Below, in pieces: positions 9,900 through 25,852 of a DNA stretch of 60,261 nt. The stretch is from positions 45,312-105,572 of the forward strand of contig PLCF01000025.1 of NCBI GenBank assembly GCA_003135555.1, in the 5' to 3' direction. The notes under the pieces are model-generated. The model did no database searches. It worked only from the letters and a program-made list of their open reading frames with translations, and was not told where the DNA came from. The DNA is from Vulcanimicrobiota bacterium (GTDB taxonomy: Bacteria; Vulcanimicrobiota; Vulcanimicrobiia; Vulcanimicrobiales; Vulcanimicrobiaceae). The position numbers were made by a program, and so were the translations under genes. Numbering within the stretch: position 1 is the stretch's first letter; each line of letters starts with the position of its first letter.

Positions 9900-10054
9900 A
9901 ACGCCGGACGCTTCGGCGGCCCGGGGCGCGGGCACTCCGCGAGAAAGGTCGCAGTCCGGGCCCGCCCGGCGGTCGCCCGGCCGCGTTGTTCTAGGCCATC
10001 GGGGCGTCGACAATGTATACTTTAGTCGGTCCCACCCTCGGGAGGAGCGTCTTT

Positions 10055-11215
10055 ATGCGTCTGGTGCGGCTACTCGCCGTCGTCGCGGCCCTCGTCGCGG
10101 TCCCGCTCGGGCCTGCTTTGGGCGCCGAAAAGACCATCGTCACGCAACCGGCGTCCCCCAACGACCCGGCGGTGCTCGACGTGGCGCGCGCCAAGGTCGC
10201 CGCCGGCGACACCAAGGGCGCGATCGCCGGATTGGCGCCCTACGTTGCCGATCATCCCACCGACGCCGCGGCCGGCCGGTTGCTGGGCGACCTCTACTTC
10301 CGCGTCCCCGACTTCGCCAAGGCCGAGAAGGTGTGGAAAGCGCTCATCGCAATCGACGCGACCGACCGCGATACGCACAGCCGCTTGGGCGCACTGTACG
10401 CCGCGCAAGACCGCATCACCGACTCGATGTACGAGTTCCAGCTGAGCCTGCCCAACCGCACCGGTTACGTCGGCTTGGTGATGGGTCACAAGAAGGCCGG
10501 CGATCTCCAGGCGTACATGACGACGCTCCAATACGAGACGGACTCGCGCCCGTTCGACATCGCCAAGTGGTCGGAACTCGGTCAAGCGCAGCGGGCGCTG
10601 CATCACTCTCAACTCGCCTTCGATGCCTTCAACCACGTCGTCTCGGTCCGTCCCGCCTCGTGCCCGGCGCGCGTCGACGCCGCCAACGCTCTGGTCGATC
10701 TCGGGCGGCTCGACGCCGCGATCGTCCACCTCAAAGCGTGCCTGGCCGTCGATTCGAACTACTACCCGGCGGTCGTGAACCTCGGCGAGGCCTACCTCGA
10801 GAAGAACGACTTCGTCAGCGCGCGGCCGCACCTCGATCGCGCCTTGGCCTTGCGTCCCGAAGGAAACGAGGCGCTCGTCGACATCGGCTACATCTACGAC
10901 GTGCAAGGGGACTGGAAGACGGCGGTCAGCTACTACAACCGCGCGATTCGCGCCGACCCGATGCGCCCCGAGCCCTACATCGATCTCGGCTACAAGTACT
11001 ACCAGCAGCGACTCTTCCCGCTCGCCGAAGCGGCGTACCTCAAGGGGCTCAGCGTCTCGGAGGACGACGGGCGGCTGCACTACATGCTCGCGGTGACCTA
11101 CAACTTGCAGGGCAAGATCGCGCTGGCGCGCGACCAGTACCGCCAGGCGATCGCCTCCGAGGAGCCCATCGTGGTCCCGCTCGCGCAGCGTGAGCTGGCG
11201 CAGCTTCCACCGTAG
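10055..11215 (+). CDS. Exported tetratricopeptide repeat protein
   Basis: GGAGGAG RBS, signal peptide, multiple TPR-like helices (NLGEAYL, DIGYIY, DLGYKY). Confidence 0.85.
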   Translation: MRLVRLLAVVAALVAVPLGPALGAEKTIVTQPASPNDPAVLDVARAKVAAGDTKGAIAGLAPYVADHPTDAAAGRLLGDLYFRVPDFAKAEKVWKALIAIDATDRDTHSRLGALYAAQDRITDSMYEFQLSLPNRTGYVGLVMGHKKAGDLQAYMTTLQYETDSRPFDIAKWSELGQAQRALHHSQLAFDAFNHVVSVRPASCPARVDAANALVDLGRLDAAIVHLKACLAVDSNYYPAVVNLGEAYLEKNDFVSARPHLDRALALRPEGNEALVDIGYIYDVQGDWKTAVSYYNRAIRADPMRPEPYIDLGYKYYQQRLFPLAEAAYLKGLSVSEDDGRLHYMLAVTYNLQGKIALARDQYRQAIASEEPIVVPLAQRELAQLPP

Positions 11216-11318: not shown

Positions 11319-11729
11319 ATGCACCGGATCCTGCGCGCACTTGCGGTCGCTACTTGCCTGCTCTGGCCCAGCACCGTCCTCGCCGCGGGGGCGACCGCCC
11401 CCGGCGCGCCGGCCGAGCGTCCTTTCGGGCGTCTCAAGCTGACCATCGTCGAGGTTCGCCGTGGCCTCGACGGCCTCACCGCGCGGGCGGTGGCGCATCC
11501 CGGCGAGGCGCCGACGGTCTACGCCCGGGCAGTGCTGCTCGAAGACGCCCTGCGGGATTGGGCCAGGCACTTTCCCAGCGACCCCTGGATCCCCGGCTGC
11601 GCGTTCGCGCTGGCGCAGCTGTACGGTCAGCTCGATCTTCCCGACGCCGAGACGCGCAAGAACGACGCCCTGGACTGGCTCATCGCCGCCTACCCCCGCA
11701 GCGACTACGCGCAGATGGGCCGGATCTGA
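11319..11729 (+). CDS. Hypothetical exported helical protein
   Basis: Signal peptide; FPSDPW and YPRSDYA motifs reminiscent of TPR/BamD-like helical pairs. Confidence 0.6.
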   Translation: MHRILRALAVATCLLWPSTVLAAGATAPGAPAERPFGRLKLTIVEVRRGLDGLTARAVAHPGEAPTVYARAVLLEDALRDWARHFPSDPWIPGCAFALAQLYGQLDLPDAETRKNDALDWLIAAYPRSDYAQMGRI

Positions 11730-11916: not shown

Positions 11917-12402
11917 ATGCGCAGCATCTCGGCGTCGTGGCTGGTCGTTCTGGCGCTCATCCTCCCGGAGGTCGCCTACGCCAAGCCGAGCGTGACACTC
12001 AAGCTCACCGGTTCGGTCGTGACCCGAGCCGTTGACGGGCACACTACGCTGACCCCCGTCGACAAGACGCAGCCCAAGACCGGCGACGAGATCCAGTACG
12101 ATATCGTCGCGGCGAACGCCGGCGACTCGCCGGCGCTGCGGCTCGTACCGACCGGGAAGATCCCCGCCGGGACCAGCTACGTCGACGGGTCGGCCAAAGC
12201 GGCTCGCGCGCATCCCGAGTTCTCGCTCGACGGCGGCAAGACGTGGTCGGTCGCGCCGACCGTGAAAGTCCGTCAAGCCGACGGAACGATGGTTGTCAAG
12301 AAAGCCGATCCGGCGCTCTACACGTCGGTCCGCTTCATCGCCGACGGCGCACTCGCGGCACACGGAACGGCCGCCTACACCTATGAGGTCCGCGTCAAAT
12401 GA
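11917..12402 (+). CDS. Small exported DUF11 (conserved repeat domain)-like protein, incomplete domain
   Basis: GAGGAG RBS, signal peptide, KTGDEIQYDIVAANAG...KIPAGTSYVDGSA; ends YEVRVK. Confidence 0.85.
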   Translation: MRSISASWLVVLALILPEVAYAKPSVTLKLTGSVVTRAVDGHTTLTPVDKTQPKTGDEIQYDIVAANAGDSPALRLVPTGKIPAGTSYVDGSAKAARAHPEFSLDGGKTWSVAPTVKVRQADGTMVVKKADPALYTSVRFIADGALAAHGTAAYTYEVRVK

Positions 12403-12443
12403 TGCGGGCCTCCTGCTTGCCCACGGAAGGGAACACTCGATCG

Positions 12444-14672
12444 ATGAACCCGCACTTGCGGTCTCTTTTGCGCACTTGCGCCGCCGTCGTTGCGCCGGTC
12501 GTCGTCGGTCTCGGGCTCGCGACCGCCGCTCCGGCGTTCGCGAACGGTACGCCGGCCGGTACGCCGATCACCAACACCGCGACGGCGACGTACTCGGACG
12601 GCGTCAACAGCTACAATTCGCAGTCGAACACGGTCACGACGACCGTCCAAAACGCTCCGTCGATGACGATCGCGCCGCCGCAGTCAACGCCCGGCGCAAA
12701 CACCGTCAGCCCCGGCGGAAACGTCACCGATACCTACACGCTTACGAACACCGGTAATGCCGCGGGCTACTTCGCTCTCTCCGGCGCGCTCGGCACAGCC
12801 AACGGCGTCACTGCCGGCCAAGGCACCTTCGTGCAGTTCGTGGTGAACGCGGGCGCGGGCAACCAGAACTTCGCCACCGTCGCGGCGGTGAACAACTACC
12901 TGCTGACCGGAAACGCCGGCGGACCGTTCCTTACGGCGATCAACGGCACGATTTCGATCAGCGTGAACTACAACGCCAACGCGGGCGCCTCGGGCACGAT
13001 CACGACGCTCGTGACGGCCAACGTCACGCAGCAGGCCGGCAGCGGGACCTCGCAGCAGACCTCGACGCCCAACACCGTGGGTCAGTACAACGACCCGGTG
13101 GTCGCCGACGCGCGCATGGATCTGCAAAAGCTTGCGGTCGTGGGCGGCACGGTCGCTGCGCCGACGGTGCAGTACACCGTGCGCGCCAACAACGGCGGCA
13201 GCCGTTCGATGGTCGCGGTAAACCGCAACGGCCTTCCGGCGGGCGCCGGGATCACTGGTGCCGGCGTCATCCTCACCGACAAGATCCCCTCATACAATGC
13301 CGTGCAGCTCACGCTCAACGGCACCCCGGCGTGGGTGACGCAGCCGACCGGCGCGACGTTCATCTACTCCACCGACGGCGTGACGTGGACGGCCTCGACG
13401 GTCGGCGCGGTCTACGTCGGCGCCTTCATCCCGGCGTCGGCGATCACCGGGACGTTCGGCGCGTCGAATCCGGGCTCGTCGCAAGGCAACGTGACCGCCG
13501 GGCAGGCGCAGGCCGCGTTCACCTTCGTGATCAACGGTTCGACCGCGGCAGGCGGCGCTAACCCCACCGCGATCGACAACGTGGTCAACTCGATCTACGC
13601 CGACCAGTCGGGTTTCATCGAGGGACCCGGCATCGCGTTCCAGACGGTCACCAACAACGCCGGTGCGACGGCCGCGCAGACCGCTCCGGCGATCGCGAAC
13701 GTCAACGGCACGCTGACCGGCGCGGCGCACATCCAATCCGCCTGTTCGCCGACGGCGAACTCGGTGCTCAACGGTCCCAATGGGTTCCCCGGAGCAACGG
13801 GTCCGGACACGACGACCAACACCGACTACACGGCGGTCTCGTACACCAACGGCGGCACGCTCCTGTCCGCCGTGGACGCCCAGACCGTGACCGTACCCGC
13901 AGGTGCGGCGGCGCTCACGATCGTCAACTCGCTCCAGAACACCGGCAACAAGGACGACACCTACAACCTCACCGTGGCGACGGGACCGGGTCTTACGGCG
14001 CTGCCTGCGGGTTGGACGGCGACGTTCGCAAGCGCCGGCCAGGGCGCCAGCGGAAGCTGCGGCGCGGTGGTGGCCGGAACGGTCATCACCTCGGTCTGCG
14101 TTCCGTCCGGCGCGACGGTGAACTACCGGACGATCTACACGCCGCCGGCCGGCGCAACGACGTTCAACGCGTTTGCCGGGTACGGCGACGCGGTCACCGC
14201 CACGTCGACCAACGACGTCACCAAGACGAACATCACGGTCGACGAAATCTTCGTGGGCGGCTTCGTCAAGCTGGTGAAGTCGTTGCAGGCCGGGCTCGGA
14301 CAGCCGTGCGCTACGGCCTCGGTCTGGACCGGCGCACCGGCCAACGTGAATCCGGGCGACTGTCTGTGGTACTCGATCGTCTACACCAACGTCGCGCCGA
14401 CGGGCGGCACCAACGACATCACGCTCAACGCGACGACGGTGGTGATCACCGAAGACGGTGCGGCCTCGGGCGGCACGCAGATCGCCTACGCCAACGACTG
14501 GGCGGCGAACACCAACGGCCTCTTCGCGGTTCCGACCGACACCAACGGCGGTACGCTGGGCGGCTACAATCCGGGACCGGGTGCGGCCGGATCGTCGCGG
14601 TTCACCGACACCATCGCTGCCTTAGCTGCGGGCGCTACGGGGACGTGCACGTTCAAGGTGCAGGTCAAGTAG
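12444..14672 (+). CDS. Large exported DUF11/Ig-like repeat protein, putative major fibre subunit
   Basis: GGAAGG RBS, signal peptide APAFA|NGTPAG, Thr/Gly/Asn-rich beta domains, internal and C-terminal DUF11-like motifs. Confidence 0.85.
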   Translation: MNPHLRSLLRTCAAVVAPVVVGLGLATAAPAFANGTPAGTPITNTATATYSDGVNSYNSQSNTVTTTVQNAPSMTIAPPQSTPGANTVSPGGNVTDTYTLTNTGNAAGYFALSGALGTANGVTAGQGTFVQFVVNAGAGNQNFATVAAVNNYLLTGNAGGPFLTAINGTISISVNYNANAGASGTITTLVTANVTQQAGSGTSQQTSTPNTVGQYNDPVVADARMDLQKLAVVGGTVAAPTVQYTVRANNGGSRSMVAVNRNGLPAGAGITGAGVILTDKIPSYNAVQLTLNGTPAWVTQPTGATFIYSTDGVTWTASTVGAVYVGAFIPASAITGTFGASNPGSSQGNVTAGQAQAAFTFVINGSTAAGGANPTAIDNVVNSIYADQSGFIEGPGIAFQTVTNNAGATAAQTAPAIANVNGTLTGAAHIQSACSPTANSVLNGPNGFPGATGPDTTTNTDYTAVSYTNGGTLLSAVDAQTVTVPAGAAALTIVNSLQNTGNKDDTYNLTVATGPGLTALPAGWTATFASAGQGASGSCGAVVAGTVITSVCVPSGATVNYRTIYTPPAGATTFNAFAGYGDAVTATSTNDVTKTNITVDEIFVGGFVKLVKSLQAGLGQPCATASVWTGAPANVNPGDCLWYSIVYTNVAPTGGTNDITLNATTVVITEDGAASGGTQIAYANDWAANTNGLFAVPTDTNGGTLGGYNPGPGAAGSSRFTDTIAALAAGATGTCTFKVQVK

Positions 14673-14679
14673 CACTCCG

Positions 14680-16884
14680 ATGCGGGGATTCTTCGCGCGC
14701 CTTGGGCGCACGATGGGCCTCGCTGTATCTCTGATCGCTCTGGCGGCAGGGATCGGCGAGGCGTCCCCTGTGGCGGGCCTCGTCATCGCCAACACGGTGA
14801 CCGCGCAGTACAGCGACCCCAACGGAGCGACGTACGCCGTGCAGTCCAACACCCTCTCGGTTTCGATCGCGGCAGTCTCGGCGATCGCCGTCTCTCCCAA
14901 GGAGACGGCGGTCGATCCGAGCTCTGAGGGCTATCCGATCGGCACGCCGGTCACCCGTACGTTCAGCATCACCAACACCGGCAACGTCACCGACGCCTAC
15001 ACCATCTCGAGCATCGTCTGCGGCGCCGGCACGATGACGTCGGCCGCGTTCGTCACGGCGAGCGCGGTCATCCCGGTCACGCCCGGGAGCACGGTCTCCC
15101 CGACGCTCCATCCGGGCGAATCGATCAAGCTGCAGGTCGTCATCGCGACAACCGGCGTCGCCGTCGGCGTGCCGTTCGCCGTCGGCGTCGTCGCGAGCTC
15201 GACGAACGCGACGACCGCGAACGGCCTCGTCACCGACACCGGGCGCGAGTTTGCCGTCGCACAGCCCGGCGCGTCGATCGCCGGCACCTCGGGACCGGCC
15301 ACGGCGATCGCGAAGCTCGTGAACCAGGTGCGTTCGCATCCGGCGCGCCCCGGTGAGACGGTAACCTACTCGATCGCATTTCGAAACTACGGTGGGTCGC
15401 CGGCGACGAACGTCGTCATCGTCGACGACGTGCCGGCCGGGATTCGCGCGTTGCCGCAGACGGTTGCCGTCAACGGCGTCAGCGCCGCCGGAACGGCGAC
15501 GCTGGTCGGCCAGCGCATCACCGTACGGGTCGGCACGCTAGGAGTCGGCGCATCGGACGTGGTCAGCTTCGATGCGGTCGTCGACAGCGGCTTGACGGCC
15601 GGTGCCACGTACGTGAACGTGGCGTCGCTGACCGCCGACGCGATCGGTACGATCACCACCAGCCCGGCGAGCGTCTTCGTCGGCATCTCCAACATCTGCT
15701 ACGACGGCTTCGCCGGTTCCGGTGCGCCGGTGAACTCGGCCACGCTGAGCCTGCGCGATCTGCAGACGCACGCGCTCATCGCGTTGCCGCAGACCGGCGC
15801 AGCGCAAGGGCTCACGCGCGCGCCGCAGGACGCCCTGCCCCCGCCCGGTTTGCCGCCGAACACCGGAAACGCCAACCCGTTCACGACCGGCGCCGACGGT
15901 GCCTACAGCTTCGTCTTCTCGGGGCAGCAGCTGGGCACCGCGGCGGCGCCGGCGCAGTACGAGCTCGACATCACGGCGCCGAACTATCGCGACCGGCGCA
16001 TCGCGATCAGCGTGACGCCGGACGCGACCGGGCTGCTGTACACTGCCGGGGTGCACGCGCTCGACGAGCAGCAGCTGGCGCGGCCGGGCGGCTTCGAGCT
16101 CGTTTCGACCAACGTCACGCTCTCCGAGGTGTTCGGTCTGCTCGGGAACGTGCCGCTGTTCGCGCCGCACCCGCTGGCGCTGTCCAAGACGGTCGACCGC
16201 GACGTGGCTTCGGGCGGCGATCGTCTGCTCTACACGCTCTCGGTGGGCAGCGACGGCGCGCAGCTCGGCGCGACGCGCGTCGTCGACACGCTGCCGGCCG
16301 GGGTGGTCTACGCGCCGGGTACCGCGCGCGTCGACGGTGTTCCGGTCGAACCCAAACGCGATGGCCGCGTCCTGACCTGGAGCTTGCCGGCGCTCAACTC
16401 GCAGCACACGATCACCTATGCCTGCGTTGTGATGCCGTCCACCGCCGACGGTGCGACCCTGGTCAACGTCGTCGACGTCGATGCGCTGGGCGGCTCCGGA
16501 ACGCACGTGCACGCCGCGGCGACGGCCGACACGCGCGTCGTCGCGGGCGCGTTGGGCAATCGCATCGTGATCACCGGCCGGGTCTTCGTCGACGTCGCGG
16601 GGACGGGCCGCTTCGCCCAAGGAGATCGCGGTTTGGACGGCGTCCGCGTCTACCTCGAGGACGGCTCGTCGGTCACGACCGACCGCTACGGGCGCTTCAC
16701 GTTTCCATCGGTCCACCCCGGCCAGCACGTGTTGCGCGTCGATGCGTCGACCTTGCCGGCCGGCGTGCGCGCCTATTCCGACAAGCGCTACGACAGCCCG
16801 CGCAGCCTGCAGCGCCTCTTGCACGGCATCTACGACGCCGGGCTGATGCATGACGTCAATTTTGCGGTGGAGCCGGCCGCATGA
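14680..16884 (+). CDS. Exported protein with two DUF11 domains and C-terminal SdrD-B/carboxypeptidase-regulatory-like domain
   Basis: AKLV..PGETVTYSIAFRNYG..VVIVDDVPAG; LSKTVDR..VVDTLPAG; ITGRVFVD..TDRYGRFTF..PGQHVLRVD. Confidence 0.85.
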   Translation: MRGFFARLGRTMGLAVSLIALAAGIGEASPVAGLVIANTVTAQYSDPNGATYAVQSNTLSVSIAAVSAIAVSPKETAVDPSSEGYPIGTPVTRTFSITNTGNVTDAYTISSIVCGAGTMTSAAFVTASAVIPVTPGSTVSPTLHPGESIKLQVVIATTGVAVGVPFAVGVVASSTNATTANGLVTDTGREFAVAQPGASIAGTSGPATAIAKLVNQVRSHPARPGETVTYSIAFRNYGGSPATNVVIVDDVPAGIRALPQTVAVNGVSAAGTATLVGQRITVRVGTLGVGASDVVSFDAVVDSGLTAGATYVNVASLTADAIGTITTSPASVFVGISNICYDGFAGSGAPVNSATLSLRDLQTHALIALPQTGAAQGLTRAPQDALPPPGLPPNTGNANPFTTGADGAYSFVFSGQQLGTAAAPAQYELDITAPNYRDRRIAISVTPDATGLLYTAGVHALDEQQLARPGGFELVSTNVTLSEVFGLLGNVPLFAPHPLALSKTVDRDVASGGDRLLYTLSVGSDGAQLGATRVVDTLPAGVVYAPGTARVDGVPVEPKRDGRVLTWSLPALNSQHTITYACVVMPSTADGATLVNVVDVDALGGSGTHVHAAATADTRVVAGALGNRIVITGRVFVDVAGTGRFAQGDRGLDGVRVYLEDGSSVTTDRYGRFTFPSVHPGQHVLRVDASTLPAGVRAYSDKRYDSPRSLQRLLHGIYDAGLMHDVNFAVEPAA

Positions 16885-19800
16885 CGCTGCGTCATCGCGT
16901 CCGCCGCAGCGGCGTCGCGCTCGTGATCGCGGGGTTGTTCTTTTCAACCGTCGACGTGAACCCGGCCGGCGAGATCGCCGGCGCGCGCGCGGACGAGATC
17001 GCCGCGACCGCGACCGCCGCGCCGGCGCCGGCGTCACCGCAGCCCGAGCCGTCGGCGGCAGCGCCGGCAGCGGCGGTTCAACCCAGCGCGTCGCCGGCGC
17101 CGCAAGCGTCGGCAGCCGCGGTCGCCGCGACCGAGAGCTCCGAGCGCGCGCCCGAAGGCGGCGATCTCACGCACCTCACCTTTACGGCGACCGATAGTTT
17201 GAGCGCGGCCCTGGTCGATCCGGCCGACGACGGCGTGGCCAACGGTACCTCGGCGGCGATCGAGGTCGAGACGGTGAAGGGCGCCGGCGTCGAGCTCAAG
17301 GTCGGCGACGCGGTCGTGCCGTTTTCGCGCATCGGCAAGCGCACCGTCGACGACAAGACCGGCGTCACGCGCTACACCTACTACGGCGTCACGCTGCAGC
17401 CCGGGCCCAATGCGGTCGCGCTGACCCCGGTCGGCGCGAACGGCTTCGGGCCGACGACGCATCATCGCATCTACGGTCCCGGGCGTCCGGTCACGCTGGG
17501 CGTCGTGGTGAGCGGGCCGTCCCGCGCCGACGGCGTGAGCCCCGACCTCGTCCGCGTCGAAGCACGCGACGCGTGGGGACACCGCGCGGCCGGCGGCAGC
17601 GTCGTGCAGGTCGTGCTGGTGCAAGGCGACGCGCGGCTCGAGCGCGTCGGCAGCGCCCAGCCCGCGACGTCGGTCACGCCGGTACCGCTCGCCTCCGCGT
17701 CGCCGGGAGTCGTCAACGGTACGGTCAACCGGCAGCGCGTCGACGTCGTGCTCGATGCGGACGGCCTCGCGACGGTGCGCTTGATCCCCGGCCTGACGCC
17801 GGGCGCGGTGCTGCTGCGCGCCGAATGCGGCGACGCCGCGCACGAGACGCGTCTGTTCCTCGCGCCCAACCTGCGCGCGCCGTTCGTCACCGGGCTGGTG
17901 AGCGCCGGCGCCGGCGCCGTGCCCGGGATCCCCGATGCGCCCGACGGGCAGCCCAACGGGACGAACTCTCGCCGCGGCCGCGTCGCGCTGTTCGCCACCG
18001 GTGCGATGGGCAAGTCGCTGGCGACCTTCGCCTACGATACCGCGGACACGCTGCAGCGCACGTCGGAATACGGCGGCGCGCTGGGCACCTACAACGGCGA
18101 TCCCAACGACCGGCCCTATGCGACCAGCGGCGACGCGAGCACGCGCCGCGACGACGCGCTCTCGCGCGATCACCTGTTCGCGCGGCTCGACAGCGGGCGC
18201 ACCACCGCGCAGTGGGGCGAGTTTCGCGCCCGCAGCGGGAGCGATTCGAGCGCCCTGGGCGGTTTCGATCAGCTCGTCGACGGCGCGAAGCTCGAACTCG
18301 GCGGCCAGACCCGCCGCGCCACGCTCTTCGCGGCGCGCAACGACGTCGGGTACGACCGGCGCGTCTTCTCGCCGACCGGCCTTGCGAACGGCATCACGCT
18401 ACGGCCCAACATCGTCGTCGGCTCCGAGGTCGTGCTCTTGGCGACCCTCGATGCGCGGATCGGGACCGTCATCGCGCAGACCGCGCTTACGCGCGGCGTC
18501 GACTACTCGATCGAGTACGCCACCGGCCAGCTGCACTTCATCGACGTCCCGCTGCCCTTTGACGAGGCCTTCAATCCGCGTCAAATCGTCCTGACCTACG
18601 AGTTCGATGCGCCCGGAAGCGCCGCCCGCACGATCGGCGGACGCGCCGAAACGCTGCTCGGCCGCAACGGCGCGCTCAAGCTCGGCGTCGGTTACGTCAA
18701 CGACACCACCGGCGCGGGGAACGTCGCGCTCGCGTCGCAAGACCTCAGCGGACTCATCCGCGGCGGCTCGTGGCAGATCGTGCATGCGACCAGCCGCGGC
18801 TCGCTGCTCGCGACGACGCCTGATTCGCCGTTGGCCGGCGCCGGCGGGAGCGCGTTGCACGCGCAACTCACCCGCGCGGTCGGCCCCGACCGGTTCTCGT
18901 TGCTGTTCGAGCGCACCGACGCGGGATACAACGATCCGTTCGGCGGTCTCAGCACGCCCGGACTCCTCAACGAACACCTCGTCTACGCGCACAAGTACTC
19001 CGCGGGTCTGGGTGAAGTCTCGCTCGACCTCGCGCACCAGGCCAACTCGGGGTTGGGCGACGCGGGTAGCTCGCAGACGACCGCGGCGCTGCGTTCGCGG
19101 CGTGCGATCACCAAGCGGATGACGGTAACGGCCTCGCTGGAGCGGCGCATCGCCGCGGCCGGCGCGGGCGGCCCGGCGTTGGGCTTCAACCCGGTCGGGA
19201 TCTTGCCGGTGCCGGGCGCTTCCCCGCTGCCGCTCGCCCCCAGCTCCGTCGCGGCAAGCCAGTCGTCGACCCAGGCTTCGCTGGGCGTGGACTGGCGCGC
19301 GACGCACGCGCTCGACGTCAGTGTCAACCGGCTCCAAACCTTGGGTGGTCAAAACGACGCGCAGCCGGCGCAGACCGATGCGCAGATCACCTACGATCTG
19401 GGCAAAGGCGGGCGGGCGTACCTGCGCCAGCGCTGGAGCGCCGCGCCGATCCAGAGCTTCGCCGAAGCGACGCAGTCGTTGACCAGTGCCACCGGCGGCA
19501 TGCGTGCGACCGAGATCGGGTTCGCCCGCCGCGTCGGCAACGCGACCAGCGTCGACACGTCGTACGTCGTCGACCATACCGCCACCGGCGGTGACGTGTA
19601 TGCGTCGATGGGCGTGCGCGAGCGCATCTCGCTCGGGCTCACCAAAGGCGACGCGTTCGTGCAGCATGCGACCGCCGCGGGCGGCGGCAGCGGCGGCTTC
19701 GACCTGTACGGCCTCTCGCTGTCGTATGCCGATCCGGCCAACAAGTTCCGAGCCAGCGGTTCGGCGCAAATGCGCACCGGCAGCGCCCCGGGCGTGAGCC

Positions 19801-20378
19801 TCTCGTTGGCGGCGACCGGAGCGATCTCGCCTGATTTCGCGCTTTTCGCGAGCGTCAACGACGCCCGCGCGATCGGCAGCAGCCAGGCCGACGAACGGGT
19901 CGGGCTGGCCTGGCGTCCGTCGCGCAGCGACGCCGGCGTCACGCTGCTCGAGTACGATCGCCGCGACGGCACCAGCGCGCTCACCAACACCCAGAGCGGG
20001 GTGCTCTCGGCCGAGCAAGTGCTGCGCGTGCGCAACCGCACCGAAATCGTCGGACGCTACGCCTACAAGCTCGACGGCGATTCGTACTACGCCGCGCACA
20101 GCTCGCTGGCCGGGCTGCGCATCGATCAGAAGATCGGCTCGCGGCTCGACCTCGGGGCGGAAGTGCGTCGCGCGAACGTGGTCGGAATCGAAGGCGCCGA
20201 CGCGACCGCCGTCGCAGTGGAAGCCGGCGTGCGGCTTGGAGACAGCGCGCGGGTCGGCGTGGGATACAACGTGCGCGGCAGCGCCGATCCGTCGCTGGCC
20301 GCGGCGCCGGTGCGACGCGGCTTCTTCGTGACCCTCACCAGCGTCGTGGATCGTCTGTTCGGCTGGGGCAAGCACTGA
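16881..20378 (+). CDS. Large predicted outer-membrane beta-barrel protein with periplasmic Ig-like domains
   Basis: ATGA-coupled; N-terminal export signal and Pro/Ala linker; long run of amphipathic beta strands in the C-terminal two-thirds. Confidence 0.75.
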   Translation: MTLRHRVRRSGVALVIAGLFFSTVDVNPAGEIAGARADEIAATATAAPAPASPQPEPSAAAPAAAVQPSASPAPQASAAAVAATESSERAPEGGDLTHLTFTATDSLSAALVDPADDGVANGTSAAIEVETVKGAGVELKVGDAVVPFSRIGKRTVDDKTGVTRYTYYGVTLQPGPNAVALTPVGANGFGPTTHHRIYGPGRPVTLGVVVSGPSRADGVSPDLVRVEARDAWGHRAAGGSVVQVVLVQGDARLERVGSAQPATSVTPVPLASASPGVVNGTVNRQRVDVVLDADGLATVRLIPGLTPGAVLLRAECGDAAHETRLFLAPNLRAPFVTGLVSAGAGAVPGIPDAPDGQPNGTNSRRGRVALFATGAMGKSLATFAYDTADTLQRTSEYGGALGTYNGDPNDRPYATSGDASTRRDDALSRDHLFARLDSGRTTAQWGEFRARSGSDSSALGGFDQLVDGAKLELGGQTRRATLFAARNDVGYDRRVFSPTGLANGITLRPNIVVGSEVVLLATLDARIGTVIAQTALTRGVDYSIEYATGQLHFIDVPLPFDEAFNPRQIVLTYEFDAPGSAARTIGGRAETLLGRNGALKLGVGYVNDTTGAGNVALASQDLSGLIRGGSWQIVHATSRGSLLATTPDSPLAGAGGSALHAQLTRAVGPDRFSLLFERTDAGYNDPFGGLSTPGLLNEHLVYAHKYSAGLGEVSLDLAHQANSGLGDAGSSQTTAALRSRRAITKRMTVTASLERRIAAAGAGGPALGFNPVGILPVPGASPLPLAPSSVAASQSSTQASLGVDWRATHALDVSVNRLQTLGGQNDAQPAQTDAQITYDLGKGGRAYLRQRWSAAPIQSFAEATQSLTSATGGMRATEIGFARRVGNATSVDTSYVVDHTATGGDVYASMGVRERISLGLTKGDAFVQHATAAGGGSGGFDLYGLSLSYADPANKFRASGSAQMRTGSAPGVSLSLAATGAISPDFALFASVNDARAIGSSQADERVGLAWRPSRSDAGVTLLEYDRRDGTSALTNTQSGVLSAEQVLRVRNRTEIVGRYAYKLDGDSYYAAHSSLAGLRIDQKIGSRLDLGAEVRRANVVGIEGADATAVAVEAGVRLGDSARVGVGYNVRGSADPSLAAAPVRRGFFVTLTSVVDRLFGWGKH

Positions 20379-22819
20379 TGCGCCGCGCCGTAGCGGCGCT
20401 GGTCTCGCTCGCCTTGACCGCGACGCTGGTGGTCGCGGTGCGCGAGCCGGCCCGCGCCGCCGCGCTGTGCGCGACGCCCGGCCGCGACGGGTCGCCGACC
20501 ATCACAGGCGTCGTCAACACCTATTGGAGCGGCTCCGCCAACGCCGCCGCTGCGGCGACGTCGATCACGGTCGCCGCGCATGCAACCGGCGACGCCGGCG
20601 TCGCGATCGCGAACGGCGACCTGCTGCTGGTCATCCAGATGCAAGGCGCGACGCTCAACACGACCAACACGTCGTCGTACGGCGACGGCAGCGGCAGCGG
20701 CAGCGGCGCGCTCTCGACGACCGCCGGAACCTACGAGTACGTCGTCGCGACGGGTGCGCTGGCGACGACCGGCGGAACCGTCAACGTCAAGGGAACCAAC
20801 GCCAACGGGCTCATCCACGCCTACACCACCGGCGCCGGCGCATCGTACCAAGTCATCCGCGTCCCGCAGTACATCGCCCCGACCGTCGGAGGCGCGCTGG
20901 CGCCGCTGGCCTGGAACGGCACCGCCGGCGGCATCCTGGCGATCGATGCCGACAACCTGCTCTTCGGCAACGGTGCGACCGTGACCGCCAACGGCAAAGG
21001 GTTTCGCGGCGGACAAGGCCGCGCCAAAGCCGGCGACGCGACCGCCGCCAACGGCGACTACGTCAACGTCGACACGAAGAACGCGCACGGGATCAAGGGC
21101 GAAGGCACCGCCGGCACGCCGGGACTTGTCTACACCGGCGGCGTCGGATCGACGGTCACCGATACCTATCCCGCCGGCGGCGACACCGGCCGCGGCGCCC
21201 CCGGCAATGCCGGCGGCGGCGGCGCGGACGCCAACGTCGCCGCGAACGATCAAAACACCGGCGGCGGCGGTGGAGGCAACGGCGGCGCGGGCGGCGGCGG
21301 CGGCAAATCGTGGAGCTCCGACATCGCCGACGGAGGCAAAGGCGGAACGTTCGCGCCGTCGGCCGCGCAGATCGTGTTGGGCGGCGGCGGCGGCGCCGGC
21401 TCGCGCAACAACGGCAGCGGCTTCGACTCGTCGGGCGGGACGGGCGGCGGGATGGTGCTCATGCGCGTCGCGGGGCTGAGCGGCGGCATCACGATCACCG
21501 CGAACGGCACCATGGGCGTCGATCCGCAGAACGACGGTGGCGGCGGCGGCGGCGCCGGGGGCACCGTCATGGTCACCGGGCTCGCGAACTTCGCCGCCGT
21601 GACCGTTACGGCGAACGGCGCCAACGGGACCGACGCCGACGTGCTCAACGGGGGCGGAGCGGCGCACGGGCCCGGCGGCGGCGGCGGCGGCGGCGTGCTC
21701 GTCCACAGCGGCGGCGTCGCGGCGACGCTCAACGGCGGCGCCGCGGGCGTCACCGACGGCTCGCCCGATCCCGACGCGCACTACGGCGCATCGGCCGGCG
21801 CGGCGGGCCAGACGTTCATCCTGGGCGCGGGCAGCGTCCCGGGCGCATCGTCGGGTGCGGAGTGCGGTTCCTCGGGCGGGACGATCTTCATCGGACCGGT
21901 CGGTGCGCCGCAAGCCACCGGGAGCTACGACGGCAACGTCGCGACGACCAACAACAACGATTTCGTCGAGAAGTCGTTTGCGCCGCCCGCGTTCAACGCC
22001 GTCAACAGCTCGACCGTCGTCGGGACGCCCAACGGCAACAACTACAACGCGGCGGTGAGCGGGATCGCGATCCGGCATCAGGTCCGCAACACCGCGGGCG
22101 CGGGCGGAAACTTCATCTTCTACGCGCAAGCGCCCAGCGCGGGCGGGAGCTGGACGGTCGCGGTGTACAACGACGCGGCGGGCTCGCTGGGCGCCCAGAT
22201 CGCCGGGACCGCGAGCGGGAACTCATACACGACGACCGCGACCATGGCGATCGGGGCGGGCGGCAATGCGTTCGTGTGGACGGTCTACTCGGCTCCCACC
22301 GGCCTGCAGGCCTTCAACCGCTTCGACGCGCTCGTCGCGGTGATCGATGCCGCCACCAACAGCAACAACAACGAAGTGCACGACGAGCTCTACAGCGGCT
22401 ACGTCGTGCAGACCAAGTCGTACTCGATCACCTCCACCGGCTGCTCGGGCGGCGTGCCGGCGGGGACGTGGTGTCCGGGCGCGACCCTGCAGTACACCGT
22501 CGACGTTCGCAACATCACCGTCGCCGCCAATGGCACGACGCCGGCGTCGGCGACGCTGACGGCCAACACGCTCACCGTCACCGACGACGGCTCGAACCTC
22601 AACTCCTGGGCCAAGGACGGTGGGTATCTCAACACGCCCGGCGCCTCGTCGGGCGGCACCGCGCCGACGACGATCACGTACTTCTACAACGCGACGAGCA
22701 ACACGACGTTCCCGGCGAATTACAACACCACCAACAAGGTCTTCAAGGTCGTCGCGGTGTGGACGACGCTCACGGCGGCGCAGAACTCGCAGCTGATCTT
22801 CACCGCGGTCCAGTTCTGA
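20378..22819 (+). CDS. Exported Gly-rich adhesin-like protein with C-terminal DUF11-like domain
   Basis: Signal peptide, poly-Gly segments, C-terminal ~300 aa similar to 12444-14672 product; TGATG coupling. Confidence 0.8.
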   Translation: MRRAVAALVSLALTATLVVAVREPARAAALCATPGRDGSPTITGVVNTYWSGSANAAAAATSITVAAHATGDAGVAIANGDLLLVIQMQGATLNTTNTSSYGDGSGSGSGALSTTAGTYEYVVATGALATTGGTVNVKGTNANGLIHAYTTGAGASYQVIRVPQYIAPTVGGALAPLAWNGTAGGILAIDADNLLFGNGATVTANGKGFRGGQGRAKAGDATAANGDYVNVDTKNAHGIKGEGTAGTPGLVYTGGVGSTVTDTYPAGGDTGRGAPGNAGGGGADANVAANDQNTGGGGGGNGGAGGGGGKSWSSDIADGGKGGTFAPSAAQIVLGGGGGAGSRNNGSGFDSSGGTGGGMVLMRVAGLSGGITITANGTMGVDPQNDGGGGGGAGGTVMVTGLANFAAVTVTANGANGTDADVLNGGGAAHGPGGGGGGGVLVHSGGVAATLNGGAAGVTDGSPDPDAHYGASAGAAGQTFILGAGSVPGASSGAECGSSGGTIFIGPVGAPQATGSYDGNVATTNNNDFVEKSFAPPAFNAVNSSTVVGTPNGNNYNAAVSGIAIRHQVRNTAGAGGNFIFYAQAPSAGGSWTVAVYNDAAGSLGAQIAGTASGNSYTTTATMAIGAGGNAFVWTVYSAPTGLQAFNRFDALVAVIDAATNSNNNEVHDELYSGYVVQTKSYSITSTGCSGGVPAGTWCPGATLQYTVDVRNITVAANGTTPASATLTANTLTVTDDGSNLNSWAKDGGYLNTPGASSGGTAPTTITYFYNATSNTTFPANYNTTNKVFKVVAVWTTLTAAQNSQLIFTAVQF

Positions 22820-22834: not shown

Positions 22835-23224
22835 TTACCTCCGTTGCGCGATGGCTTCTATCTCGACGCGCGCCCCGCGCGGCAACGCCGCGACCGCGAC
22901 GGTAGAGCGCGCCGGCATCTGCGTGCCGGGGAACGACTGGCCGTAGACGGCGTTCACCGCCCCGAAATCGCTCATGTCGACGAGGAAGATCGTCGTTTTC
23001 ACGACCTCGGCGAAGGTTAGACCGCCGGCGGCCAACACCGCGGCGAGGTTCGCCATGACTTGCCGCGCCTGCGTCTCGATGCCGCCGTCGACGAGCTCGC
23101 CGGTCGCGGGGTCGAGGCCGATCTGACCCGAGGTGAACACGTACGCGCCTGCCGCGACGGCCTGCGCGTACGGCCCGATCGCCGCGGGGGCGGCCGTCGT
23201 GTGGAGCGTTTCGCGCGCGCTCAT
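22835..23224 (-). CDS. ridA: RidA/YjgF family reactive intermediate deaminase
   Basis: APAAIGPYAQAV, SGQIGLDP, PARSTVAVAALPRGARVEIEAIA; ATGA overlap with AKR. Confidence 0.93.
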   Translation of the reverse strand: MSARETLHTTAAPAAIGPYAQAVAAGAYVFTSGQIGLDPATGELVDGGIETQARQVMANLAAVLAAGGLTFAEVVKTTIFLVDMSDFGAVNAVYGQSFPGTQMPARSTVAVAALPRGARVEIEAIAQRR

Positions 23225-24282
23225 CCCGGGGAGGTCGCCGTGGCCGGCTCTGCCTGCGCGAGATCGGTGGGCGGCGACATCGTCCCCTTGTAGCGCCCTT
23301 GCTCGGGGCCGACGCCGAAGTTGGTCTTGCGCAGCTCGGTGATGCGCGCCAGCTCGGCCGCGGTAAGCGCCGGCGTGTCGGGTGCGGCCGCGAACTCGCG
23401 CAGCTGCGCTGCGTCGTAGATGTTCGGCAGCACCGTCATCACGCGCGGCTCGGCGAGCAGCCATTGGAGGGCGGCTTGCCCCAGCGTGCGGCCGGGCGCC
23501 TCGAGGAAGCGCAGCGTCTCGACTTTGCGAACGCCGTTGATCAGCCATTGGCGCGGGCGGTGACTGCGGTGGTCGGTCGGCGGGAAGACGGTGTCGGCGG
23601 TGTAGCGGCCCTCGAGCATCCCCGAGCTGTGCGGGACGCGGATGAAGTAGGCCGTGTCGGCGTCGAGCTCGCGCGCCGCGGCGACCATCTCGTCGCCGGG
23701 GAACTGCTCGAGCAGGTTCCAGATCATCTGAACCATCGGCGCGTTGACGCGCGCGGCTTCGATCCCTTCCCACAACCAGCCGATCGCGGGTCCGAGCGCG
23801 ATGCCCCAGGTGCGAATCTTCCCCTCGGCTTTGAACTGCTCGAGCAGCGCGACGAGGGCGCCGTCGTGCACTTGCTCCAGGCGCGCGTTGTGCATCTGGT
23901 AGATGTCGACGTAGTCGGTTTGCAACCGCCGCAGCGACTGCTCGAGCGCGTAGCGCACGAACTCGGGCGAGAAGTCCTGTTCGATCTCGTTCTGCCCTTT
24001 GCGCTCGCCCGCGTGGTGGTACCAGTCGTACCCGAACTTGGTCGCGTAGACGACGCGCTCGCGCCGGTCCGCGAAGGCCTTCGCGAGCTGCTCCTCGCTG
24101 CGGCCGTTGCCGTAGGTGTCCGCCGCGTCGAACGTGGTGACGCCCAGGTCGAGCGCCTCGTGCATGAGCGCCACCGCGTCGTCGTCGCTGTTCTCGCCCC
24201 ACCATCCGGTGGAGGTCGTCCAGAGGCCGAAGCCGACCTCGCTAACGGTGACGTTGGTGTTCGGGAGCGTGCGGTACTTCAT
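23221..24282 (-). CDS. Aldo/keto reductase
   Basis: VSEVGFG, FDAADTYGNGRSE, YATKFG, SLRRLQTDYVDIYQMH. Confidence 0.93.
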   Translation of the reverse strand: MKYRTLPNTNVTVSEVGFGLWTTSTGWWGENSDDDAVALMHEALDLGVTTFDAADTYGNGRSEEQLAKAFADRRERVVYATKFGYDWYHHAGERKGQNEIEQDFSPEFVRYALEQSLRRLQTDYVDIYQMHNARLEQVHDGALVALLEQFKAEGKIRTWGIALGPAIGWLWEGIEAARVNAPMVQMIWNLLEQFPGDEMVAAARELDADTAYFIRVPHSSGMLEGRYTADTVFPPTDHRSHRPRQWLINGVRKVETLRFLEAPGRTLGQAALQWLLAEPRVMTVLPNIYDAAQLREFAAAPDTPALTAAELARITELRKTNFGVGPEQGRYKGTMSPPTDLAQAEPATATSPG

Positions 24283-24427: not shown

Positions 24428-25852
24428 GTGACATCGCAGGATGACGACTTCCGGGCGGCCTTCGAGCGCGTCGGCGCGTGGATCGACGACTACTACAACG
24501 ACCCGCTGCGCTATCCGGTCCTCTCGCGCGCCCGCCCCGGCGATCTGATCGCGGCGCTGCCGGCCGAGGCGCCGCTCGAGGGCGAACCGTTCGAACGGAT
24601 TTTCGCCGACTTCGAGCGCTGCATCATCCCGGGTATAACGCATTGGAACCACCCGCGTTTCTTCGCCTACTTCGCGATCAGCGCGGCCAAGGTGACCGTC
24701 CTGGCGGAGGCGTTGGCGGCGGCGCTGGACGTGAACGCGATGCTGTGGCGGACCTCGCCCGCGGCGACCGAGCTCGAAGACGTGACGCTGGGCTGGCTGC
24801 GCCGGATGCTGGGGCTGCCCGACAGCTTCCACGGCATCGTCTACGACACGGCCTCGATCGGCGGCTTCACCGCGCTGGCGGCGGCGCGTGAAGCGCTCGG
24901 CCTCGACATTCGCGCGCGCGGGATGGCGGGGCGTAGCGATCTGCCGGCGCTGCGCGTGTACGTGACCGAGCACACCCATTCGCACGTCGAAAAGGCTGCG
25001 ATCGCATTGGGCATCGGCCGCGACAACGTCGTCGCCGTCGCCGTCGACGAGAACTTCGCGATGCTTCCCGGCGCGCTCGCGCGCGCGATCGATGACGACC
25101 GCGCAGCCGGGCGGCTCCCGATGTGCGCCGTGGCGACGGTGGGAACGACGTCGACGACGTCGACCGATCCGGTCGGCGCGATCCGCGCCGTCACGCGCGA
25201 GCGTGGCGTGTGGCTGCACGTCGACGCGGCCTACGGCGGACCGGCGGCGATCCTGCCGGAGTTCCGCTGGCTGCTCGACCCCGCGCACGACGCCGACTCG
25301 ATCGTCGTCAACCCGCACAAGTGGCTGTTCGTCCCGGTCGATCTCTCGGTGCTGTACGTGCGCGATCCCGAGCTGCTGCGCCGCACCTTCAGCCTGGCCT
25401 CCGACGTGCTGGTGACCTTCGAGAGCGGCGTCCACAACTACATGGACTACGGCCTTCAACTGGGCCGCCGCTTCCGCGCGCTCAAGCTCTGGTTCGCGCT
25501 GCGCAGCTACGGCGTGCGCGGGATGCAAGCGCGGCTGCGCGCGCACATCGCGATGGCGCAAGAGCTCGCCGGTTGGATCGCGGCGGCGCCCGGCTGGGAG
25601 ATCGCCGCCGCGCATCCGCTCTCGGTGGTGTGCTTTCGGTACGTTCCCGACCCCGCGCTCGATCCGCCCGCGGTCGATGCGCTCAACCTCGCGATCATGG
25701 ACGCGGTCAACGCGACGGGCGAGGCGTTCTTGTCGTCGACGCGGCTGCACGGCCGGCTCGTGCTGCGCATCGCGATCGGCAACGAGCGGACGACCCGCGA
25801 CGACGTGCGCGCCGTCTGGGAACTGCTCGCGCGCGCCGCCGGCGTGCGTTAA
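24428..25852 (+). CDS. Group II PLP-dependent (aromatic amino acid-type) decarboxylase
   Basis: PGITHWNHPRFFAYF, SPAATELE, LHVDAAYGG, NPHKW, RRFRALKLW. Confidence 0.93.
   Translation: MTSQDDDFRAAFERVGAWIDDYYNDPLRYPVLSRARPGDLIAALPAEAPLEGEPFERIFADFERCIIPGITHWNHPRFFAYFAISAAKVTVLAEALAAALDVNAMLWRTSPAATELEDVTLGWLRRMLGLPDSFHGIVYDTASIGGFTALAAAREALGLDIRARGMAGRSDLPALRVYVTEHTHSHVEKAAIALGIGRDNVVAVAVDENFAMLPGALARAIDDDRAAGRLPMCAVATVGTTSTTSTDPVGAIRAVTRERGVWLHVDAAYGGPAAILPEFRWLLDPAHDADSIVVNPHKWLFVPVDLSVLYVRDPELLRRTFSLASDVLVTFESGVHNYMDYGLQLGRRFRALKLWFALRSYGVRGMQARLRAHIAMAQELAGWIAAAPGWEIAAAHPLSVVCFRYVPDPALDPPAVDALNLAIMDAVNATGEAFLSSTRLHGRLVLRIAIGNERTTRDDVRAVWELLARAAGVR

Follow-up and report, generated by a model that had tools for sequence, protein, structure and literature searches.

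A 2026 review names four assembly routes for pili, i.e., chaperone-usher, type IV, sortase-assembled and curli, and in the available part of its text isopeptide bonds are taken up for the sortase-assembled pili of monoderm bacteria only (PMC13721041). In this study we analyze five consecutive open reading frames, termed g1 to g5, on the plus strand of a 60,261-nucleotide stretch of DNA (“the window”; contig PLCF01000025.1 of assembly GCA_003135555.1) from a bacterium of the phylum Vulcanimicrobiota. In our estimate it is reasonably likely that the products of this operon form a modular fibre on the surface of a diderm bacterium, which is built from a CLIPPER isopeptide domain split between chains and is anchored by the predicted outer-membrane protein g4. 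Some subunits would carry the last two strands of the domain at their N-terminus (the donor), others the remainder at their C-terminus (the acceptor): the candidate tip g5 has an acceptor, the candidate base g3 a donor and the candidate shaft subunit g2 both, and g1 is a lone acceptor.

Chaperone-usher pili of type 1 or P consist of a tip (FimH or PapG), a rod (FimA or PapA) and a terminator (FimI or PapH), and are served by an usher (FimD or PapC). Their subunits adopt an incomplete Ig-like fold, which is completed by the N-terminus of the next subunit; the tip only accepts, the rod donates and accepts, and the terminator only donates. The operon would share this division and polarity, and it has a barrel gene of its own, with docking of the donor predicted and its pairing in trans, i.e., between chains, presumed. 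Yet its donor is a two-strand hairpin and not a single strand, the fold is different, a covalent lock is predicted, and the barrel is far larger and in many lineages fused to the base subunit. Moreover, neither the genome (84% complete) nor seven proteins of the neighbourhood gave a match to a PapD-like chaperone (PF00345), and the genome gave none to an usher (PF00577); E. coli and D. radiodurans controls for the chaperone were positive.

The domain family DUF11 has been renamed CLIPPER, and its crystal structure (9IFR) reveals a CnaA-like fold with an intramolecular isopeptide bond, to which Lys, Asp and Asn contribute from early, middle and late positions of the domain; many DUF11 domains lack these residues (PMC12617251). 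Filaments in which the DUF11 domains of one polypeptide follow each other like “beads on a string” are also known (bioRxiv 10.1101/2025.08.19.671072). The operon shares with the described CLIPPER proteins the domain family, the Lys/Asp/late-Asn order, the CnaA-like fold and the logic of a beads-on-a-string stalk. However, the known triad resides in one chain and stabilizes the domain, whereas in the operon the Asn strands would be supplied by the N-terminus of another protein, and the same chemistry would join subunits. The original prediction for this locus had spoken of a CnaB-like fold, which is to be replaced by CnaA-like, i.e., CLIPPER (PMC12617251).

The combination of donor-strand complementation with a sortase-free isopeptide bond between subunits is already published twice, for an archaeal thread (PMC9715654) and for the bacterial protein BsaA (PMC11580942). 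The thread of Sulfolobus acidocaldarius (Saci_0406) combines donor-strand complementation with apparent inter-subunit isopeptides and no sortase; it differs from the operon in being archaeal, of another fold, without an outer membrane and without sequence relation to g1-g5, and its bond connects Asn57 with the alpha-amino group that Asp24 contributes from two subunits away, rather than being of the CnaA-type Lys-Asn kind (PMC9715654). In Clostridium perfringens BsaA, a member of the TasA family that assembles by “exchange and lock”, an N-terminal segment enters the sheet of the neighbour and is locked by a Lys-Asn bond aided by Glu, and mutants lose the oligomers. In contrast to the operon, BsaA belongs to a monoderm, has a TasA-like fold, a single donor strand and, as described there, neither a barrel nor a division into tip, shaft and base, and its secretion needs SipW and type IV pilus genes (PMC11580942).

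Sortase-assembled pili such as those of BcpA, SpaA and RrgB have Ig-like CnaA/CnaB subunits that contain isopeptides and are covalently joined, as the subunits of the operon would be, and a likeness is visible in g2 (to BcpA) and in g3 (to RrgB_K2N_iso_D2). The junction in the operon differs, as it would form by itself inside a reconstituted domain. No match to sortase (PF04203) was found in the genome, with positive controls in three Gram-positives, and the ends of g2, g3 and g5 are a beta-strand or a folded domain with no LPXTG-type sorting signal and hydrophobic tail; these results agree with the sortase independence that had been proposed. SpyTag/SpyCatcher, finally, is a split Ig-like isopeptide domain, the parts of which refold and bond spontaneously; it is man-made from CnaB2 and uses a Lys-Asp pair (PMC6539128), whereas the operon would be a natural CnaA-type organelle builder. 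In a search of the full-text literature, which covered neither subscription journals nor supplements, no account of a split CLIPPER domain or a self-locking diderm pilus came to light, in line with the original prediction, which had not recognized a classical pilus class. Haloarchaeal tafi came up as a DUF11 case and were rejected, the text match running through DUF1102 only.

The five genes, with the parts of g2 on which the argument turns, are as follows:

11917-12402, plus strand: g1, 161 aa, secreted single CLIPPER/DUF11 domain, putative acceptor only

12444-14672, plus strand: g2, 742 aa, shaft subunit candidate, putative donor and acceptor

12549-12647, plus strand: putative donor hairpin of g2, residues 36-68 (TPAGTPITNTATATYSD...SNTVTTTV), with N44 at 12573-12575

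13107-13628, plus strand: internal complete CLIPPER-like domain of g2, about residues 222-395, with K229, D279 and N379/N382

14256-14672, plus strand: putative C-terminal acceptor of g2, residues 605-742, with K612 (14277-14279) and E670 (14451-14453)

14680-16884, plus strand: g3, 734 aa, base subunit candidate, putative donor hairpin, no acceptor

16881-20378, plus strand: g4, 1165 aa, predicted outer-membrane protein

20378-22819, plus strand: g5, 813 aa, tip candidate, putative acceptor, no donor

The genes span 11917-22819 and are treated here as one operon. The overlaps of g3 with g4 (4 bases) and of g4 with g5 (1 base) suggest translational coupling. An alternative in-frame ATG of g2 at 12399 overlaps the stop of g1, and the longer start is annotated in a small number of homologues (P0020, P0106). 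A plausible Sec signal peptide can be read by eye at the start of each of the five proteins.

The operon contains complete CLIPPER-type domains as well as halves of such domains. Three internal domains, one in g2 and two in g3, hold the Lys/Asp/Asn triad inside a single chain: DLQK (K229), LTDKIP (D279) and PTAIDNVVNSIY (N379/N382) in g2; AIAK (K212), VDDVP (D249) and YVNVA (N313) in the first domain of g3; and LSK (K503), VDTLP (D536) and TLVNVV (N596) in the second. The three complete DUF11 domains in Lys/acid/Asn order that the original prediction had listed are thus in place, as are all of the strings and coordinates it quoted. The triads are conserved: among 22 homologues of g2 (36-84% identity), D279 is invariant and conservation reaches at least 90% for K229, N379 and N382, and in five homologues of g3 (48-70% identity) N38, K212, D249, N313, K503, D536 and N596 are all invariant. 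The protein g3 comprises a donor hairpin (residues 30-63), the two complete CLIPPER domains and a C-terminal SdrD_B/CarboxypepD_reg-like domain, and it matches DUF11 (E 1.3e-14, two stretches), RrgB_K2N_iso_D2 (E 1.7e-7) and SdrD_B (at 633-696).

Family membership is uneven across the operon. With a cut-off of 24.6 bits for PF01345 (DUF11), g1 (30.8 bits) and g3 (55.0 bits) both pass, and g1 also matches TIGR01451 (E 2.6e-10); its DUF11 match (E 4e-7) covers profile positions 8-84 of 114. Whole g2 and g5 do not match PF01345 and are tied to CLIPPER by motifs and fold only. Residues 222-435 of g2 match the folds of BcpA (Z 10.1, rmsd 2.9 A, 133 residues aligned), Cnm, Cna, SpaA and RrgB, and the internal domain of g2 in its model thus resembles the CnaA-type isopeptide pilin domains of Gram-positives.

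The C-terminal domains of g1, g2 and g5 end before the Asn strands, so that no triad is found within one chain there. The g2 protein finishes with ...GGFVKLVKS...VVITEDG...CTFKVQVK* and g5 with ...YVVQTKS...LTVTDDG...IFTAVQF*, both without an Asn hairpin, and g1 with ...YTYEVRVK*, which compares with the end of g2. The g5 acceptor covers about residues 668-813 and includes K680 (22415-22417) and D736. The last two domains of g2 and g5 are homologous (g2 434-704 versus g5 496-761, E 3e-6), and the point of truncation is the same in g1, g2, g5 and in the distant loci described below. Read from sequence, then, the acceptor of g2 and g5 is a C-terminal domain with a Lys strand and a catalytic acid that lacks the last two strands, and the donor is a two-strand hairpin with the Asn.

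The missing strands are found at the mature N-termini of g2 and g3. N44 of g2 lies within ITNTATATY and N38 of g3 (14791-14793) within IANTVTAQY, each 5-10 residues past the likely signal-peptide cut, and the donor of g2 (TPAGTPITNTATATYSD...SNTVTTTV) reads like the last strands of an internal domain of g3 (LTAGATYVNVASLTAD...TSPASVFV). The two N-termini are homologous to each other (g2 1-113 versus g3 1-110, E 6e-8). Both halves of the anatomy had been proposed before, i.e., mature N-termini of g2 and g3 that consist of the late Asn segment only, and C-terminal domains of g2 and g5 with Lys and acid that stop short of it, and both are borne out by these alignments.

The donor hairpin is the best conserved stretch of g2. 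A search for relatives yielded 304 homologues at E <= 1e-3, and in the alignment of 22 of them I42, N44, A48, Y50, D52, S61, N62 and K612 are invariant, and E670 and D671 are at least 90% conserved. In g5, all 19 alignment rows have K680, and T[DE][DN]G is retained wherever a row extends to it; one of the rows (P0185) is g2-like and another (P0218) stops early. The Lys, acid and Asn residues are therefore retained in homologues, as the original prediction had asked of them. A regular expression built from the donor motifs hit 2 of 12,814 six-frame open reading frames (at least 100 aa) of the genome, and these are the N-termini of g2 and g3. A genome search for further copies gave the same two with the donor as query, and with the acceptor of g2 only g2 itself, even g5 being missed at the sensitivity used.

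Structure prediction points to a fit between the two halves. The AF2 model of g2 (pLDDT 81, pTM 0.58) is a string of beta-sandwich domains, and the whole model yields generic multi-Ig matches only in Foldseek (PrgB, integrins). In this monomer model the hairpin strands (41-51 and 56-67) have a pLDDT of 62-73, and part of the last domain is weak (pLDDT 43-61). The fragments g2[441-742] and g2[34-200] were modelled as two chains with 22 alignment rows each, in three runs and with three controls. The hairpin is predicted to dock into the C-terminal domain with ipSAE values of 0.92, 0.92 and 0.93 (best of the three controls, 0.00), a mark that 116 of 157 solved complexes attain, as do 2 of 215 mismatched pairs; this calibration is rough here as a custom alignment was used. 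The runs share at least 99% of contacts, with a pLDDT of 76-81 for the partner and 93-94 for the other chain.

The predicted interface comprises residues 34-36, 40-53, 55-64 and 66-69 of the donor, and 605-614 (the Lys strand), 616, 631-647, 661-670 (the acid strand) and 741-742 of the acceptor. Residues 666-669 would pair with 46-50 and 608-612 with 59-62; K612, E670 and N44 are all interface residues, and from the strand register E670/D671 would lie next to N44/T45. The docking thus accords, for cut pieces, with the earlier proposal that the N-terminal peptide completes the C-terminal domain.

The likely anchor of the fibre is g4, the parts of which are predicted as follows:

g4, N-terminus: signal peptide

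g4, about residues 19-90: disordered, Ala/Pro-rich

g4, residues 105-332: two Ig-like domains

g4, residues 335-1156: about 44 beta-strands

No Pfam or NCBIfam family matches g4, hence no known autotransporter or intimin/invasin barrel family is assigned, and phmmer against PDB sequences returned nothing meaningful (best E 0.41); the ESM Atlas gave leads only, such as “TonB-dependent receptor” or “outer membrane protein”. In the AF2 model (33 alignment rows, pLDDT 73, pTM 0.64) the strands are 10-16 residues long, mostly with a pLDDT of 70-90. The Foldseek top match of the barrel part is LptD (E 1.8e-7), and VIA matches include a BAM-LptD assembly state (Z 12.1), BamA (Z 11.8), porins (Z 10-11), the PapC usher (Z 9.8, rmsd 12 A) and Deinococcus SDBC (455 residues aligned). 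The strand region hence matches outer-membrane barrels of many families, none of them closely, and in our reading the model shows an outer-membrane barrel of very large size that belongs to none of the described families, which agrees with the earlier proposal that the fibre has an outer-membrane barrel of its own. The Ig part matches invasin/intimin D0-D1 (1cwv; Z 13.8, rmsd 1.4 A, 93 residues, 23% identity), yet these domains precede the barrel in g4 and do not follow it.

Relatives of g4 are numerous: among 1.84 billion representatives of 50% clusters, 1170 members were found at E <= 1e-3 and 803 at E <= 1e-10. Of 150 matches listed, 38 are at least 1500 aa long, with the g4-like part at the C-terminus. 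In one of them (P0400, 1924 aa) residues 42-734 align with g3 33-728 including the donor (31% identity, E 5e-71), and residues 745-1880 align with g4 44-1153. Nine long proteins of the family were scanned, and four others (P0395, P0409, P0418, P0422) also have a two-stretch DUF11 match before the g4-like part; SdrD_B occurs in P0400, P0395 and P0409. A hidden Markov model (HMM) of the donor, which was used instead of a strict regular expression that proved too narrow on fusions (3/38), finds it at the N-terminus of 18 of the 38 proteins of at least 1500 aa, and in none of 54 proteins of 950-1499 aa and none of 58 shorter ones.

These natural g3-g4 fusions tie the base subunit to the barrel and leave a free donor at the far end. 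They share the passenger-then-barrel order with type Va autotransporters, but the barrel has about 44 strands. The order of the fusions and the analogy with ushers point to g4 as an anchor and probably also as the passage for the fibre. An OmpA domain (Pfam) lies between the g3-like stalk and the barrel in P0463 (3493 aa), and a fusion in a Geobacter-labelled locus (L088, 8716-14910) includes an OmpA-like peptidoglycan-binding stretch, as read by eye. A domain of this type would fasten the fibre at its base to the cell wall.

The kit is conserved as a set. The g2 alignment retrieved 80 related loci, many of those without the full set being broken by contig ends; 50 of them keep g1-g4, and 25 of these also g5. 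The g4 gene is present in 28 of 41 genomes including this one, i.e., in 23 of the 24 other genomes of its genus and in 4/4 of one genus in another family; a search with a stricter first look did not find it in the remaining 12 of the 41 (eight other genera). Homologues carry the names Candidatus Eremiobacteraeota, Vulcanimicrobiota and Candidatus Elarobacter. A cultured member of the Eremiobacterota has an inner membrane, thin peptidoglycan and an outer membrane with LPS (PMC9758169).

Two distant loci, labelled Novosphingobium and uncultured Geobacter, were analyzed over their whole length. Each encodes a large tip protein that ends in an acceptor with Lys and acid; two short shafts that carry both halves (328 and 356 aa in the Novosphingobium-labelled locus, 374 and 394 aa in the Geobacter-labelled one); a g1-like lone acceptor, in which Asn replaces the acid; and a base-barrel fusion with a donor at its N-terminus (1695 and 2064 aa, respectively). 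All eight donors of both loci and the window keep the Asn, as judged by eye. The synteny and the recurrence of the same kit are what the original prediction had proposed to look for, and the kit has probably spread across phyla. The presence of two shaft paralogues suggests major and minor subunits or two fibre types. In these distant loci, at L095 8983-11598 and L088 5630-8638, the shaft paralogues flank the g1-like gene.

The lone acceptor g1 has the Lys (K29) and a Gly (G80) at the position of the catalytic acid. In the g1 family (n = 125; five from loci and 120 among the matches listed), the pairs at the Lys and acid positions are K,G (93), K,A (12), K,E (8), T,A (5), T,G (3), H,D (2) and R,G (2). 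Hence 117 of the 125 are without the Lys or the acid; the statement that g1 never has both is ruled out by the eight with K and E. Since the catalytic acid is missing in three lineages, g1 might hold or cap donors reversibly, and we regard it, speculatively, as a candidate non-covalent cap or donor chaperone. The earlier division into tip, shaft and base fits the orphan halves and the donor-first g3-g4 fusions, and it had left out g1 as a fourth, acceptor-only player.

From these data we infer pairing in trans, a covalent bond, more than one g2 per fibre, an order of assembly, exposure at the surface and a role for g1. In this scheme Sec would export all five proteins, as read from their N-termini. 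The tip g5 would come first, with an adhesin-like N-terminal part and an acceptor only. The donor of g2 would plug into g5, and further copies of g2 would add, each inserting its N-terminal donor into the C-terminal acceptor of the preceding subunit, with the polarity of chaperone-usher pili; here the docking is predicted, and the order presumed. The donor-only g3 would end the chain and tie the fibre to g4 as its anchor and probable outer-membrane passage, which the fusions support. A seated hairpin would bring together K612 (K680 in g5), E670 (D736 in g5) and N44 (N38 in g3), and a Lys-Asn isopeptide might then form enzyme-free, as it does within whole CLIPPER domains; the conservation of the triad points this way. 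Meanwhile, g1 would hold donors reversibly as a periplasmic chaperone or cap.

Several observations weigh against this scheme. The meeting of K612, the acid and N44 is read from the interface list and strand register. Docking of cut pieces is blind to whether the halves belong to one chain or two, so that a circularly permuted domain closing within one chain would pass equally, and the test may also be passed through likeness to whole CLIPPER/CnaA domains known to the model. The second fold comparison of the g2 model (VIA) spanned residues 69-608, between the donor hairpin and the last domain, and Pfam assigns no DUF11 to the C-terminal domains of g2 and g5. Among the long g4-family proteins, 20 of 38 miss the donor HMM, and several with donor-like N-termini lack the Asn (P0403, P0419, P0445, P0466; by eye), which indicates that some lineages may use the plug without a covalent lock. 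Furthermore, g5 does not adjoin the operon in 25 of the 50 loci with g1-g4, the eight g1 homologues with K and E weaken the idea that g1 never bonds covalently, and many of the labels of other phyla come from metagenome bins and may be mis-binned.

Among the alternatives, a fixed three-part adhesin survives best, and we consider it unlikely. One g5, one g2 and one g3 would be joined in trans on g4 with no addition of g2 to g2; the results are neutral on chain length, donor types and acceptor types correspond one to one when g1 is disregarded, and DUF11 filaments made of a single polypeptide provide a precedent (bioRxiv 10.1101/2025.08.19.671072). However, the donor of g2 is predicted with high confidence to fit the acceptor of g2 and no bar to self-addition is visible, and the distant loci have two shaft paralogues, like pili with major and minor subunits.

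Closure in cis is more improbable still. Here g2 would be circularly permuted, its own hairpin completing its own last domain, with g3 and g5 (or g1) pairing in trans or not at all, and no fibre would result. The docking test is neutral on this point, and in the monomer model of g2 the hairpin is already folded as two strands at the pLDDT given above. Nested domains made of N- and C-terminal segments are found in tip pilins of Gram-positives. A two-segment GBS104-like Ig entry may be compared (PMC12617251). Yet the linker between the hairpin and domain 1 has only about six residues, and the four-domain chain of g2 would thus need to form a closed ring. Fold-back appears hard in the short distant shafts as well, since a single domain separates donor from acceptor, which is the case in the Novosphingobium-labelled shafts of 328 and 356 aa. 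Trans pairing is also the likelier arrangement because the donor of g3 and the acceptors of g5 and g1 are orphans that closure in cis only would leave incomplete, because donor-first g3-g4 fusions occur, and because the same kit recurs in distant loci. Orphan donors and acceptors are conserved together, and the base-barrel fusions keep a donor without an acceptor in the chain.

That the operon holds unrelated DUF11 adhesins and an unrelated outer-membrane protein, with short but complete C-terminal domains and an N-terminal motif that is simply the start of domain 1, might draw on the silence of Pfam about the C-termini of g2 and g5 and on the frequency of DUF11 domains without isopeptide residues (PMC12617251), but it is already disfavoured and very improbable, given that the donor is the most conserved stretch of g2 and aligns with the last strands of whole domains, that docking far exceeds the controls, and that the truncation point, the gene order and the fusions recur.

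There is a fair chance that the split-domain fibre represents a distinct, widespread pilus class. The fuller claim, which we advance tentatively and with doubt slightly outweighing belief, is that of a widespread and undescribed class of diderm pilus that locks itself enzyme-free, uses a natural Tag/Catcher split of a CLIPPER domain to link tip, shaft and base covalently, has a giant barrel of about 40 strands as anchor and conduit and employs the dead acceptor g1 as a chaperone that keeps hold of donors on their way to the barrel. If the proposed scheme is correct, diderms build covalent surface fibres without sortase, chaperone or usher, and a further assembly route joins the chaperone-usher, type IV, sortase-assembled and curli routes (PMC13721041) as well as type V pili. 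A large family of giant outer-membrane proteins that lack annotation, the 1170 g4 relatives among the 50% cluster representatives, would likewise be accounted for. The Tag/Catcher principle of protein engineering would then pre-exist in nature as an assembly mechanism, and the many lineages would be a source of orthogonal natural tag/catcher pairs. The fibre could further give a handle on adhesion in the Eremiobacterota, a mostly uncultured phylum.

The N-terminal half of g5 is rich in Gly (GGGGG runs), with a conserved Cys soon after the signal peptide. Residues 12-448 (20378-21721) match NF047640 (gliding_AgmC_N) with E 3.5e-30 and 105-109 bits, below the cut-off of 275 bits, and judging by this match the region is only remotely related to the N-terminal part of AgmC, a gliding protein of Myxococcus. 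AgmC had no match in 14 control genomes, and a literature search on it had nothing pertinent among the papers listed.

The genes around the operon are the following:

8472-10013, minus strand: class II fumarase/aspartase-like, read from translation

10013-11215, plus strand: TPR-repeat protein with signal peptide, upstream of g1 (Pfam TPR_1, E 4e-25)

23221-24282, minus strand: aldo-keto reductase-like, read from translation

24428-25852, plus strand: PLP-dependent decarboxylase-like, read from translation

The flanking genes look like ordinary housekeeping genes. The TPR protein has weak NCBIfam matches, all far below cut-off, to TPR lipoproteins of the PilW, Tgl and GltE type (pilus/gliding), and may be an assembly helper, e.g., for the barrel. 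A homologue is present somewhere in 33 of the 80 related loci, and its position directly upstream of g1 was seen only in L016, L067 and L072. Between the TPR gene and g1 lies a small open reading frame (11319-11729, plus strand, 136 aa) with a signal-peptide-like start, which may not be a gene; it had no Pfam or NCBIfam match and no tblastn match in five related loci. A scan of the operon for promoters and terminators gave sites no commoner than in shuffled sequence, and no RNA run is among the sequencing runs listed as containing the operon DNA (11917-20378). DNA near-identical to this same stretch (0.85-0.97 of sampled words) occurs in peat-metagenome runs of three studies, one of which is perhaps the source.

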